A stretch of DNA of 64,000 nt from a virus (taxonomy: Duplodnaviria > Caudoviricetes): positions 64,001 to 128,000 of the IMG/VR virus record IMGVR_UViG_3300029305_005547; one strand, written 5' to 3'. The notes under the pieces are model-generated. The model worked only from the letters and a program-made list of their open reading frames with translations, was not told the origin of the DNA and did not search any database. Positions 7,309-63,873 of the stretch are shown here, in pieces; the first letter of the stretch is position 1; each line of letters begins with the position of its first letter. The position numbers were made by a program, and so were the translations under genes.

Positions 7309-7389
7309 GACGGAATTTAGTTAAGTAAAATTTCTGTAAGTCTCGATATTTCTCGGGACTTACAGATTTCTTATTTAGCTAAATAGTAA
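7309..7389 (+). repeat. Cassette-head element, copy 1 of 9
   Basis: GACGGAATTTAGTTAAGTAAAATTTCTGTAAGTCTCGATATTTCTCGGGACTTACAGATTTCTTATTTAGCTAAATAGTAA. Confidence 0.97.
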
Positions 7390-8752
7390 TATGAGTAGTT
7401 ATTTACCATTAACCGGAGGAACTTTGAGTGGAAGTATTATTGTAGAGAAAGATAATGCCGGAGTGTCTGTAAATGATACCACAGTTGCACACAAGATCTC
7501 ATTAGCATCAAATGATGGCAATGCTGGAATATATGATAACACTAATACCAAGTGGATATTGAAAAGTGACTCAACTGGAGTTGTAACACTAGCTGGCGCA
7601 TCCTCTCATGCTGTAGTAACTGCAACAAATCCATCAACGGCAACAACTTATAGAATACCATTTATAAGCGGAACTTCAAGTGGTAATAGGGCGTTATTAG
7701 TAAATGATGGATTTGCTTATTATACTCGTGAAGGAACCGCTGATACTGACGGTATAGGATATATATTTTTAGGTAACAATAAAGATACAGGTACAGCCGG
7801 TAATAAACGTGGATGTATTAGATTGTATTCTAATTCGGAAAGTTACGCAAATATTTATTCAGCAGCATCTCTTGGAAGTAATGTAACAATAACGTTTCCA
7901 GCTAAAGGTGGTACAGTTGCACTCACTAGTGATTTTTCTGATTTACGTGATTATGACAATACATGGAATGGGGTAAATAACTTTACAGACGAAGTTAATA
8001 TGACAAGCACTGTTAATATGAAGTATTGGATTACCATTGATAAAAACGCTACTTGTGATATCAATTCTGGTATTTTTATGAATAATAATAGATTTATATC
8101 ATCAGGATCAGATTCAGCAGGAATATTTATTTGTGCAACTGCTTCTGGAACGACTGCTACCGGATCATCTCAAACATATAATTTTGCACCAACTGCATTT
8201 CGTCCTGGAAAAAATGATGATGTTGGATTAGGAGATTCATCACGTAAATGGAAACAACTTTTTGCTGTAACTTCAACAATTTCTACATCCGATAGAAACT
8301 TGAAAGATAATATAAACGAATTAACAGATATTCATAAAAAATTATTTATGAAATTAATCCCTGTTTCATTTACTTTTAAAGATGGAACTTCTGGAAGAAC
8401 ACATATAGGATTTATTTCTCAAGATGTTGAAGATGCTATGAATGAACTTGGAATGAATTCATTAGATTTTGCTGGGTTCTGTAAAGACGTTAAAACTAAA
8501 TCCATTATTGAAACCAGACCAAGTTTAAAGAAAGATGGTACTCAAAAATTTGATGAAAATGGTAATCCTGTATATGAAGAAATTGATAGAGATATTCCTG
8601 ATCTTGATGAAAACGGCAATATTCAATATGTTTATTCATTGCGGTATGAAGAATTCATTGGACTTGTTGTTCATGTATTGCAAGACTCAGTAAATCGTTT
8701 AAATTCTATCGAAGAGCGTCTTTCTAAATTGGAAAGTAATCACGACATATAA
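7379..8752 (+). CDS. Tail-fibre tip cassette 1 with C-terminal peptidase S74 intramolecular chaperone (frame opens at LNSN; first ATG 7391)
   Basis: LNSN-MSSYLPLTGGTLSG fibre motif; STSDRNLKDNI...HIGFISQDVE...LRYEEFIG S74 signature; no RBS before the ATG. Confidence 0.85.
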   Translation, partial: LNSNMSSYLPLTGGTLSGSIIVEKDNAGVSVNDTTVAHKISLASNDGNAGIYDNTNTKWILKSDSTGVVTLAGASSHAVVTATNPSTATTYRIPFISGTSSGNRALLVNDGFAYYTREGTADTDGIGYIFLGNNKDTGTAGNKRGCIRLYSNSESYANIYSAASLGSNVTITFPAKGGTVALTSDFSDLRDYDNTWNGVNNFTDEVNMTSTVNMKYWITIDKNATCDINSGIFMNNNRFISSGSDSAGIFICATASGTTATGSSQTYNFAPTAFRPGKNDDVGLGDSSRKWKQLFAVTSTISTSDRNLKDNINELTDIHKKLFMKLIPVSFTFKDGTSGRTHIGFISQDVEDAMNELGMNSLDFAGFCKDVKTKSIIETRPSLKKDGTQKFDENGNPVYEEIDRDIPDLDENGNIQYVYSLRYEEFIGLVVHVLQDSVNRLNSIEERLSKLESNHDI

Positions 8753-8845
8753 AATTATAGTTAATGGTGATGAATTTATTATTTCTAAATTCATTTTTAT
8801 AATTAATTTTAATTAATTTATATTCCATATACCCAACTTGGGTAT

Positions 8846-11800
8846 ATGGAATATTTTCCCTATTTTCCACCCCGGAAACATTGTTTTAATACTTCTATGA
8901 AAGGAAGTGATATTTTTATGGCAGGTAAAGAAATAAAAGTTTCTAAAACCTATAAGACTAATAACGGAGTTAAGCTAAATGCGCAATGGCTTAAAAACGC
9001 TACTAGATCGTTAGGGTCTAACGCAGGAAGTGTCTTGCAAGAAATAAGTCCTAACATTTATGGGGTCGCTGAATCTGCCGCCCAAATCAAAAGAACGTTC
9101 ATGAGATCAAAAGTATCTCAGAATGCTGTATCACAGGCTATTGAATCTAATCGTTATATTAAAATGGGTAGAACCGCTATTGATAATGCGATTAAAGATT
9201 TAAAGTCAGGTAACTTTAATAATGATTCCAGATCATCGGGTGGAAATGATGAATCAACGAGTTATTCGTTTGGTGAAATCAACGATGCTGAAGCTGGATC
9301 AACTGGGCAGATTCAGGTCAATTTAAACCCTGAAGGTTTGACGTCCATTAATAACTCCATTACGAAACAAACGAAGTTTCAGATGCAGGCTGCAAAAGCC
9401 AATGTAGATGCTATCGTTGCTACATCTTCAGCAATGATGACTATGAATCAAAGAAATGCTGAAGCTTCTTTAAATATGCTTACAAACATCAATAATAGTT
9501 TGCAAGCTCTTATTAAATATAATAATGAAAATATGTCCAAGTTCATTGCGTCATCTATGACGTATTATGAAATGATGGGACAAGTACATGCTCCTGCTAA
9601 AAAACCTGGTGGTGTAAATAACAGGTTAACTGGAGCCGATGTAACTGATAAACGTGGTAATTTAAATACTGCAAATTTGGCAAAATTGATTAAGCAAAAT
9701 GCTAAAGAACGTTATGCTGAAACAATGCCTGGTCAGTTAACATCAATGCTTGATACTTTTGGAGAAGAGTTAGTAGCTAATCCTCTTAAATTAGTAACTA
9801 CAACTCTCATGAAAGAGATTATACCGAAGTCTGTAAAAGAAGCTACAAAGAATCTTGATAAGACATTTGGAAACTTTGTAACTGAACTTTTAATGAAATC
9901 TTCGGAAACATTGAAAGCATCATCTGGAGGAAAATTATCTGGATTAAAACAATTCTTAGGTTCTGTACTAGATATCAATGTAAAGAGACAAGAAAAGTTT
10001 AATACTGCAGGTAAAGTAACCACAGATGCTGCTGTTTTTGACGGAATAACGCGTAATGCTATTACGACTGAAATTCCTAAATACTTAAGAGAAAGCACTG
10101 CTTATTTAAGACAATTAGTAGCTTTAAATGGTGGTGATCCTGATAAAGCTCTTGCAGGTTCACAGATATTCAATAGAGAATCTGGTACTTTCCAAAGATA
10201 TGAGGATTTTACAAAAGAACTTTTAGGTTCTATAAATGAATCAGTAATTAGCAGTTTAGCTTCTAGTGATTTTGGAAAGACTATGTCTAAAGTAGCTAAC
10301 TCTGCTGTTGTTGGTGAACAAAGACAAGAAGCTTTTGAGGCATTACTTAAAAAGTTTTATATTGCTCTTGAAAAAGATGATCGTCAAAGAATTGATTTAA
10401 CTAGGCGTGGTGCTGGAAGTGACATTAATGCAATTATAGGGTCTCTTCAAGGAGATGCTGCTTTAAAACAGATTCTTGAAGAAGCTGTTTACATGTCATT
10501 TGGTCATGGAAAAGGTGGAATCAATTTAAATAGTGCAAGACTTAATGCTAAGTCTATGAGAAATAGACGTATACAAGAACTTGAAGAGAATAATCTTGGA
10601 GAGTTATCTGGTCTTACAAAACATGGTCAGACTATAGACGAAGCTATGGCTTCTGTTATTTATGGTTCAGACGGACATGCAACAAGAACTACTCCTTACA
10701 CTCCTACTTCATTACTTGGACGTGTTACAAGTATTTTTGATATCTTAGAAAGAGGTATCAATGTAAGAGTAACAGGAAAAACCCCTTATGGTAAATTTAA
10801 AGCTGGTGCAGTAAATCAAAATAATAATGCATCAGTTTCATCAAATCAAAGTTCTTCTAATGCATCTAGTTCAAGTTCTGGACTTATGGATGAAGCTGAA
10901 TTGCAAGCTCAGCTCGCTGGTGCGTTAGATGAACCTCAATCTTCTAATACTTCTGGTAGAAAAGGAAGTAAATTCTTCGTTAATAAAACAGAGCATCTTG
11001 GTAATATGATGCATTATATTTTACAGGGTGACCCTGCTAAAGTATATGCTGAAATGGGTGCATTGTTTGGAGAAGGTGTTACTGCATTAGGTCATTCTAT
11101 GAAGGATGCTGTTATCGCTCCTTTAAAAGAAACCTTATTTGGTGACAAAGATGCTTCTATTACAGGAAAGATTCATGACATGTTTTCTGGACTTAAAGAA
11201 GACATGGCTACATTCGTTCTTGGTCCAAAAGGAGAAGATGGAAAAAGAACAAAGACTACCAGTTCTGTAAAAGGTTTTCTCGAAGAGGGGCTTAAGAGCT
11301 GGAGTGAGACACTTTTTGGTGGTGAAAAATCTTTCGAAGACATTAAGAAAGATTTAAAAGACAATATAAAGAAAAATTCTGATGCTGGACTTAAAGGTGC
11401 AGTAGCAGGTGCTGGATTAGGTATCGCATCAGGTGGTTTACTTGGTACTTTAGTAGGTGGACCTTTGACAGGTGCATTACTTGGTACTGCGACAGCAATT
11501 TTCACTAAATCAGAAGGTTTCCAAAAACTCATGTTTGGTGATCAACATGAAGAACTTGAAGGAAAAGATGGTAAAAAATATGATGTTCGTAAGGGCGGAT
11601 TAATTTCACCTCAAATCCAGAAATTCTTCAAAGAACACAAACATGATATGATTGGTTCTGCTGGCATTGGTGCTATTGGTGGTGCTTTTACTGGTGGTGG
11701 ATTACTTGGTACATTAGTAGGTGGTCCTGTTGCAGGTGCATTACTTGGTACTGCTGTAGGTATTGCTAAAAATTCCGATACCTTCAAAAACTTAATCTTT

Positions 11801-63102: not shown

Positions 63103-63200
63103 CATATGAATGTATAGGTTAGTTATATAGTAAAATCATATCTCTTGCGATTGATTTATAGATATGATATATTGACTTTGTGAAGAGTGGTGACAGGGGG

Positions 63201-63281
63201 GACGGAATTTAGTTAAGTAAGTTTTCTGTAAGTCTCGATATTTCTCGAGACTTACAGATTCTTTATTTAGCTAAATAGTAA
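63201..63281 (+). repeat. Cassette-head element, copy 9
   Basis: Identical to copy 4. Confidence 0.97.
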
Positions 63282-63873
63282 CAAGCAAAATTCACTAGGA
63301 TTTGTTCCTGTTAGACAAGGAGGCGGTGTAGATCAAAGCTCTAATACGGTTAATATTGGTTGGACTGGTTCAAAGTTAAAATGTACAATAGATGGATGGT
63401 ATGACTTAGGTGGGTTCTCATTTGAGAGTCATACTCATAATAGTTTAACTAATATTTCATTTGGACAAGATCCGGAAGGAAATTGGGGATACATACCAAG
63501 CGGTGCTGATACAGTAACCCCTTTTAAAAGTTTACATGATGGTAAATGGATACAAGCGGAAATTGAAGCTAAGTTTGTTATATATAAACCTTGGACTACT
63601 GATGTAACATCATATATTTCACCATCTGATTTTAATCAATTACTAGGATATATTGTTGAAGCTAAGAGTGGTGCCGTAGGAACAGCTTGTTTCTTAATGT
63701 CAGATGGAACTTATTCAGTGTCAAACTGGCATACAAGTAATGGTACTAATAGAAAATTTGTTAGTGCTTCAGATGTATATGAAAAAACTTCAACATCAGT
63801 AATCATAAAATCTCCTTATTGGTTAGGATTAACAAATACAAATATGAGATCATATTTCATTATGTATAAATAA
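63271..63873 (+). CDS. Start-less tail-fibre tip cassette 9 (200 aa, absent from the ORF track)
   Basis: LNSNKQNSLGFVPVRQGGG..NIGWTGS..HTH..GADTVTPFK...YK*; LGFxPVxQGGG and HTH are tail-fibre motifs. Confidence 0.8.
   Translation, partial: LNSNKQNSLGFVPVRQGGGVDQSSNTVNIGWTGSKLKCTIDGWYDLGGFSFESHTHNSLTNISFGQDPEGNWGYIPSGADTVTPFKSLHDGKWIQAEIEAKFVIYKPWTTDVTSYISPSDFNQLLGYIVEAKSGAVGTACFLMSDGTYSVSNWHTSNGTNRKFVSASDVYEKTSTSVIIKSPYWLGLTNTNMRSYFIMYK

Follow-up and report, generated by a model that had tools for sequence, protein, structure and literature searches.

Hairpin-headed tail-fibre tip cassettes dispersed through a large gut phage genome: a probable DNA-recombination system for changing the receptor-binding tip

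Introduction

How can a phage make use of tail-fibre tips whose reading frames have neither a start codon at their head nor a ribosome-binding site? The question is raised by nine near-identical elements of about 81 nt lying in a stretch of 64,000 nt of viral DNA, hereafter the window, which corresponds to bases 64001–128000 of the IMG/VR record IMGVR_UViG_3300029305_005547. Each element heads a different open reading frame, here called a cassette, and these are numbered c1 to c9 by position. Tail-fibre tips set the host range of phages, and a preliminary description of the window took the cassettes to be spare tips that are fused at a shared LNSN motif to an expressed fibre gene elsewhere. 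This reading is now supported by an acceptor site in such a gene and by joined forms in relatives, and the elements and cassettes probably belong to a system that uses DNA recombination to change the receptor-binding tip of the one long tail fibre of this phage.

The record is a single virus genome of 278,849 bp with 32% G+C and a CheckV completeness of 100%. Its divergent family-B DNA polymerase (window 33347–35458, PF20286) shares 29% identity with Bacillus phages AR9 and PBS1 and also matches phiKZ-like phages, matches by which the phage can be placed as a distant member of the AR9/PBS1/phiKZ jumbo-phage assemblage. The public sequencing runs that contain its sequence are animal faeces and bovine gut metagenomes, with no RNA run among those listed. 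A complete relative, IMGVR_UViG_3300031555_004728 (G001; 275,512 bp with terminal repeats), serves as the main genome of comparison.

An acceptor site in the tail-fibre gene

Every cassette opens with the same 11-nt core, CTAAATAGTAA, and the element 3′ end reads TAG/CTAAATAGTAA(T/C), where the slash marks the junction. A single hairpin-less copy of this core, in frame inside a long fibre gene, had been predicted as the acceptor, and it is present at genome position 137332, at codon 375 of a 626-aa gene (P0001, genome 136210–138090) that lies 8 kb outside the window, in the context ...YLLQNQIDT-LNSN-MSSYLPLSGG. The window itself holds no fibre N-terminal gene, as the preliminary description had it. 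One other exact hairpin-less 11-mer, on the minus strand at 102745, stands in an unrelated context and looks like a chance occurrence. The fibre gene has AAAGGAGG upstream, unlike the cassette junctions, which carry no Shine–Dalgarno-like motif. A search of the fibre protein against a phage collection gave no match, and its AlphaFold2 model is poor (pLDDT 41) and usable only for a predicted helix at residues 362–377, which ends at the junction.

The L-box, ACGGAATTTAGTTAAGTA, comprises the initial 18 nt of the element and recurs in one extra copy at 135681, 1.63 kb upstream of the acceptor core. The order at the expression locus is accordingly L-box, promoter region, N-terminal part, core and tip, and at a silent locus L-box, 51-nt hairpin spacer, core and tip. 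A role for the L-box as a general promoter was rejected, since the sequence is confined in this genome to the elements and the one copy ahead of the fibre module; its matches in contig L010 are that lineage's own elements on the other strand.

The elements and the silent cassettes

The nine elements of the window lie where they had been placed, all on the plus strand, with two beginning one base earlier (60947 and 61885), and 71 of their 81 positions are identical in all nine. The 14-mer TAGCTAAATAGTAA occurs eight times against 0.11 expected. Over the whole genome there are 17 full element copies, the nine in the window included, together with one truncated copy and the orphan L-box; 13 elements are on the plus strand and five on the minus strand. 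The truncated copy (genome 41459–41518, minus strand) keeps the G-rich tract, the L-box and the inner hairpin, lacks the R-box and the core and sits at a synteny breakpoint; it may be the scar of an aberrant exchange.

The coding anatomy of the cassettes largely bears out what had been noted at the outset. Behind eight of the nine window copies the frame continues in a common register (LNSN...) and stays open for 111–457 codons, and copy 3 does have one extra T in its core, with a 98-codon frame in register with AGTAA. In the genome as a whole, in-register LNS(N/K) frames of 94–457 codons follow 16 of the 17 full copies, and the seventeenth has one extra T (P = 1.7e-14 against random positions and 2.5e-30 against positions after a stop codon). 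An ATG is mostly missing at the junction, standing at codon 5 in c1 and c6 only, and c5 has none in its 182 codons; nor is there an evident ribosome-binding site, a Shine–Dalgarno-like motif being found at 0 of 16 junctions versus 64% of long open reading frames (ORFs). Among the tail-fibre hallmarks that had been named, Peptidase_S74 was confirmed by Pfam in c1 and c5, whereas the lectin-like match, in c7, is weak (E 0.004) and below the cut-off. Cassettes occur singly or in arrays of two to three, at many loci among essential genes, between genome positions 19 and 172 kb.

Joined forms in related strains

A comparison of relatives, which the preliminary description had called for, showed the N-terminal module joined to a variety of tips, some of them silent elsewhere. 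Eleven proteins recovered by protein search share the 374-aa N-terminal part at 47–94% identity, and their C-termini beyond it are unrelated. The shared part runs to LNS(N/K) or LNCN in most of them and to LQTK and ATN in the two most distant.

Three contigs carry alternative arrangements. Contig L016, which encodes P0002, is from a strain 94% identical to the present one, and the P0002 tip aligns from residue 375 to residue 1 of the silent cassette at genome 171852 (67.5% over 155 aa). Bases 51–1709 of this contig equal genome 135681–137345, exactly from the L-box to the core, and bases 1–68 are the upstream flank of element c3 (genome 96048–96112); the entire fibre 5′ module therefore occupies the locus of a different element in that strain. 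The L016 tip and the gene after it resemble cassettes 171852 and c4, with 82% nucleotide identity between the 3′ part of c4 plus its next gene and the L016 expressed tip region, and another element follows. In contig L013, a cassette that is silent just upstream of the fibre gene in L010 and G001 is joined at the core as the expressed tip of P0008 (99% identity in amino acids, 98.7% in nucleotides); no silent copy stands in L013 at the position held in L010, which suggests that the cassette was moved rather than copied. In contig L015 (P0003) both of the present flanks are kept and the tip is replaced from the core onward. Run X8, whose 2807-nt contig identifies it as the L015 strain, shows next to no depth over the tip of the present genome, and in run X4 a contig begins exactly at the core and depth dips upstream of it, a weak hint of mixed forms. 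Gene content beside the elements also differs between strains, since X8 lacks a 380-aa ORF just upstream of the element at 142975 (L009:17684–18975, genome 141684–142975) and has 30 other bases instead.

Some tips have a companion. Cassettes c4, c6, c7 and c8 and a fifth at genome 171852 end in a common SLSGTTLTIT before the stop codon, and behind the first four lies a gene with a GGGAGG ribosome-binding site whose product is conserved at the N-terminus (M[AS]I[IV]VNGTTIPT) and variable thereafter. The partner gene of c4 accompanies the tip in L016 (83% identity in amino acids), and the products of such genes look like a second distal piece of the fibre, bound non-covalently, or like a chaperone, in either case moving with the tip.

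Conservation of core and hairpin across lineages

The relative G001 has 35 elements, 13 on the plus and 22 on the minus strand, ending ...CTTACTTAACA/AAACTGCAAC, and its fibre junction reads GAG CTA AAC TGC AAC (ELNCN). Open frames of 90–276 codons follow all 35, and in 25 of them the first 20 codons contain no ATG; no cassette of the present genome resembles a G001 cassette. The elements of a third lineage, L021, end ...TTTGAT/AAATAGTAA, matching that lineage's own fibre junction ACA TTA AAT AGT AAA. In each of the three lineages the element 3′ end (CTAAATAGTAA, AAACTGCAAC and AAATAGTAA, respectively) is thus that of its own fibre junction, and the core therefore co-varies between donor and acceptor. 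No repeated core was found in the more distant fibre relatives L003–L008, L017 and L019 within the DNA examined, and an exact-pattern scan of IMG/VR for the element yielded no further contig.

The three element families align without gaps and share a two-helix hairpin of 81–85 nt, with an outer helix of 14 bp, in which the L-box pairs with the R-box and CTAAAT of the core takes part in the pairing, and an inner helix of 14 bp. The helices are 88.7% paired, versus 28–48% with the partners shifted out of register; compensatory double changes occur at six helix pairs across the three lineages. Folded as DNA on the cassette strand, the element of the present genome reaches −15.8 kcal/mol (z = −6.1). 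A G-rich tract precedes every element, with 42% and 52% G in the two genomes versus 16% overall, a level that 0 of 10,000 random sets reach, and the hairpin module has stop codons in the cassette frame. Every element of the present lineage has its TAG/CTA junction at the centre of a perfect 14-bp palindrome, TATTTAG/CTAAATA (for example, window 7371–7384); as a result, L-box and R-box repeat each other (ATTTAG-YTAART) in direct as well as in inverted orientation. The G001 lineage lacks this palindrome.

Genome rearrangement at the elements

The present genome and G001 are separated by 31 synteny breakpoints, nearly all within 13–172 kb of the former, and the remainder is colinear. Nineteen of 20 sites in the present genome and 34 of 36 in G001 lie in breakpoint gaps, as against one and two sites, respectively, in 56 colinear gaps. 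The elements are therefore where these genomes break and rejoin, which accounts for cassettes lying among essential genes.

The preliminary description had held that the sites, being direct repeats, could not support simple inversion within the window. This does not extend to the genome, in which 5 of 18 elements here and 22 of 35 in G001 are inverted with respect to the fibre gene, and many neighbouring blocks, element-bounded ones included, differ in orientation between the two genomes. Given these inverted sites and inverted blocks, a shufflon-type inversion is open as a route and may be the main one. The states of L013 and L016 are not explained by a single inversion and need exchange at both the core and the L-box; they fit excision with re-integration or exchange between genome copies.

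A candidate recombinase

A Xer-like tyrosine recombinase of 341 aa is encoded on the plus strand at window 172–1197 (PF00589, E 3.6e-38) and is the sole one of its class found in the genome; a search of the same genome for a serine recombinase domain found none. It passes the NCBIfam XerA/integron-integrase model NF040815 with 231 bits against a cut-off of 220 and fails the integron-integrase models TIGR02249 (82.7 versus 265 bits) and NF011946 (50.6 versus 435), and the closest solved structures are XerA and XerD. G001 also has one tyrosine recombinase, 74% identical to this one and with the same outcome against these models and structures, and a recombinase search of IMG/VR found only the G001 relative and one homologue at 38%. 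On account of its co-occurrence with the elements, and having no obvious lysogeny role in a phage of this type, the protein would be the enzyme of the system. The block that carries it (genome 62877–66373, about window 1–2373 and upstream) is inverted relative to its neighbours between the two genomes, and no element stands at the boundaries of the block (breakpoints 61384–62877 and 66373–68783).

Proposed mechanism and alternatives

In the mechanism we favour, the expressed gene would supply the promoter, the ribosome-binding site and a constant 374-aa N-terminal part ending in the predicted helix ...GYLLQNQIDT-LNSN, and 17 start-less tip cassettes, some with a partner gene, are stored over about 150 kb. 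Recombination at the core would fuse the N-terminal part in frame to another tip, with the L-box as the second recombination boundary, in a site-specific reaction that may be carried out by the single Xer-like tyrosine recombinase. Exchange between inverted sites would flip large genome blocks and make the genome itself a shufflon, and exchange between direct sites would need excision with re-integration or exchange between genome copies. The anatomy, the acceptor site, the joined forms in related strains, the co-variation of core and stems and the breakpoints at the elements are observed; the enzyme, the strand and point of exchange, any action of the hairpin as folded DNA and the rate of switching are inferred. 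A bolder version, in which folded hairpin sites and a Xer-type recombinase of a lytic jumbo phage put any of 17–35 tips in frame into the fibre gene at high frequency, as a protein-building counterpart of integrons, is conceivable, if somewhat doubtful; if it were true, one infection would give progeny of many host specificities and the central 150 kb would be continually reshuffled.

Several observations weigh against site-specific tip exchange by this enzyme. The link between recombinase and elements is a co-occurrence in two genomes only, and the recombinase gene (64 kb) adjoins no element and stands 72 kb away from the fibre gene (136 kb); its function could thus be a different one, for instance dimer resolution. 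The strand on which the elements preferentially fold differs between lineages, and the inner helix is weak in the G001 lineage. The core is common to one side of the junction only. As to the data, each alternative joined form in the related strains is known from one metagenome contig, and the run data are Logan contigs, which break at the 81-nt repeats and make the element junctions unreadable.

The same joined forms could have arisen with no dedicated machinery, through rare events of general homologous recombination, or of gene conversion, that use the short core and conserved 3′ sequences, the element being mainly an insulator whose stop codons and terminator-like hairpin shield silent DNA among essential genes. 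The in situ replacement in L015 fits gene conversion, with a right boundary in the conserved downstream partner gene as in a conversion tract, and the L016 tip is a mosaic of two cassette types; the shared SLSGTTLTIT end of five cassettes and the conserved start of the next gene could give the right-hand homology, and in the present genome the inner hairpin with its T-rich tail fits a simple terminator pattern. That tail, however, is not conserved in G001. For homologous recombination a stretch of 11 nt is very short, and the junctions are nevertheless all exact; compensatory changes in three lineages keep the outer helix, core included; the L013 and L016 modules appear to have been relocated rather than copied; breakpoints are concentrated at elements; and the 35 stop-free silent frames imply frequent exposure to selection. 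We consider this explanation unlikely.

Expression of the cassettes in place, by a ribosome hop, by start-codon-independent initiation or by joining to the fibre mRNA at the RNA level, appears highly improbable, although the element has features that would suit it. In the hop version, a short upstream ORF would be left at the L-box codon AGU and resumed at the core codon AGU, 66 nt downstream. The L-box codon (alignment columns 18–20) and the core codon (85–87), which lie in frame at a distance of 66 nt, do specify one and the same residue in each of the three lineages (AGT/AGT, TGT/TGC and AGC/AGT), a stop codon follows the L-box codon in two of them, and an in-frame ATG, GTG or TTG lies just upstream in 13 of the 17 elements of the present genome. 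Such starts are nevertheless not enriched in frame (14, 13 and 14 of 29 in the three frames of G001, and similarly in the present genome), and they are absent from four of the present elements and half of those of G001. No junction has a ribosome-binding site, two window elements follow opposite-strand genes, and the joined forms exist as DNA in related strains, so that no RNA or ribosome trick is needed. A mini-ORF of the form M..TEFS before a stop codon, with an AGU-to-AGU hop, was rejected, in-frame starts being no commoner than in control frames; bypassing of the type known from T4 gene 60 was rejected as well, the matched codons being present but the upstream in-frame starts not enriched. 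It is also scarcely credible that the elements are selfish miniature mobile repeats at sites resembling the fibre junction, with the frames as decaying remnants of former fibre genes. Copies that are 96–100% identical within a genome and about 70% identical between genomes are as expected after recent spread or homogenization, but none of the copies has an N-terminal remnant upstream of it, 16 of 17 frames in the present genome and 35 of 35 in G001 are intact, and one cassette is in use in another strain.

Relationship to known systems

Programmed tip switches known so far hold two to seven tips at one compact invertible locus. The closest parallel is the Rin shufflon of Bifidobacterium prophages, in which a tyrosine invertase acts by inversion only on five segments at 11-bp rix sites, within a compact locus flanked by the recombinase gene (PMC6109161). 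Like Rin, and like R64 Rci and the Min, Gin, Cin and Pin systems, the present system has a constant N-terminal part of a receptor-binding protein and alternative start-less C-terminal segments at a short asymmetric repeat, where the two are joined in frame; with Rin it also shares the length of that site (the 11-bp rix compares with the 11-nt core), the presence of a tyrosine recombinase and strains in different states. Unlike in Rin, 17–35 cassettes, in either orientation and mostly as direct repeats in the present genome, lie scattered among essential genes across some 150 kb; the donor site is set in an 81-nt two-helix hairpin with a G-rich tract, and the L-box forms a second boundary. Whole genome blocks are rearranged here, and the system is carried not by a temperate siphophage but by a jumbo phage, a distant relative of AR9 and phiKZ. 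The sites are also not clustered beside the recombinase gene, unlike those of the R64 Rci and Rin shufflons.

Integrons offer a second comparison. Their attC sites span about 57–141 nt, with the consensus 5′-RYYYAAC ... GTTRRRY-3′ and exchange at G/TT, and the CTX phage has a folded single-stranded attP that is used by XerCD. As in integrons, the cassettes are promoter-less, often tandem and each tied to an imperfect hairpin site (here 81–85 nt) whose paired boxes, like those of attC, are conserved in structure more than in sequence; as in integrons and in CTX attP with XerCD, a single double-stranded acceptor site follows a promoter, and the tyrosine recombinase is of the Xer/IntI clade. An insertion of the attI x attC type would be expected to leave a hairpin element and the next cassette immediately behind the expressed tip, and this is the arrangement in L013 and G001. 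An action of the present site as single-stranded DNA, like that of CTX attP, would be conjectural. Unlike integron cassettes, those described here are fused into a protein and not merely transcribed, and the acceptor is inside a coding sequence, with cassettes dispersed instead of forming one contiguous array with attI and a promoter. The arms, unlike those of attC, read GTTAAGT ... A(T/C)TTA(G/A)C, in the opposite order, with boundaries at TAG/CTAAAT and after AAGTA.

The layout of one expression site and many dispersed silent copies recalls Neisseria pilE/pilS, Borrelia vlsE and the trypanosome VSG genes with their 70-bp repeats, in which the silent copies lack a promoter and an N-terminal part, have a conserved repeat at the upstream edge and are copied non-reciprocally by general recombination. 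The present system has the same layout and likewise G-rich sequence beside its sites; it differs in that the L013 and L016 modules appear to have been moved and not copied, in its fixed 11-nt junction and in being carried by a virus. With diversity-generating retroelements such as that of BPP-1 Mtd it shares the programmed diversification of a phage receptor-binding tip, but these mutagenize one tip by reverse transcription, whereas here whole pre-made tips are exchanged. No reverse transcriptase was seen in the present genome, although no search aimed at one was made. An RVT_1 reverse-transcriptase gene lies 2 kb downstream of the fibre gene in the P0010 lineage (L022:9266–10414), which may carry a diversity-generating retroelement besides hairpin-headed cassettes.

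Full-text literature searches returned no description of a dispersed, hairpin-headed tip library, and we could not find this form of host-recognition switching in the literature searched. In these large gut phages, 17–35 tips are stored genome-wide behind structured sites, and blocks of essential genes are rearranged as a side effect, which, if the proposed mechanism is true, would explain the scrambled gene order of this phage group. Were switching frequent, it would be a new means by which phages of gut viromes attain a broad host range, and the system, made up of one recombinase, an acceptor of 11 nt and a donor site of 81 nt, would be a natural in-frame cassette-exchange tool for retargeting phages in the laboratory. 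Gene callers truncate or miss cassettes that have no start codon, and libraries of this kind are probably under-reported for that reason.

Cassettes and neighbouring genes in the window

All features in this section are on the plus strand. Element c1 (7309–7389), made up of G-rich tract, L-box, inner hairpin, R-box and core, heads the longest of the nine cassettes (7379–8752, 457 codons), which begins LNSN-MSSYLPLTGGT..., shares its first 29 nt with the expressed tip and includes the Peptidase_S74 chaperone. Element c2 (28080–28160) precedes a cassette of 113 codons (28150–28491) that begins LNSNGPSGYRF... and has its first ATG at codon 65. In element c3 (32094–32175) the core with its extra T reads CTAAATTAGTAA, and the 98-codon frame (32168–32464) follows the AGTAA register with a +1 shift relative to CTA. 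Element c4 (35801–35881) heads 185 codons (35871–36428) with the C-terminus SLSGTTLTITT, and its partner gene of the M[AS]I[IV]VNGTTIPT family, at 36440–37033, encodes 197 aa from its own ATG.

Elements c5 (54119–54199) and c6 (54769–54849) are in tandem. The ATG-less cassette c5 (54189–54737, 182 codons) has HTH motifs beside its Peptidase_S74 match, and c6 (54839–55486, 215 codons) has the C-terminus SLSGTTLTITL and is followed by a partner gene at 55500–56402. Farther on, element c7 (60947–61027) heads the cassette with the weak B_lectin match (61017–61352, 111 codons) and a partner gene at 61364–61849, and element c8 (61885–61965) heads 173 codons (61955–62476) and a partner gene at 62488–63102. 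The last cassette, c9 (63271–63873, 200 codons, behind the element at 63201–63281), begins LNSNKQNSLGFVPVRQGGG..., has its first ATG at codon 143 and had no match when searched against longer proteins. Between c2 and c3, a single ORF of 1095 aa (window 28611–31898) combines GNAT acetyltransferase and NUDIX domains.

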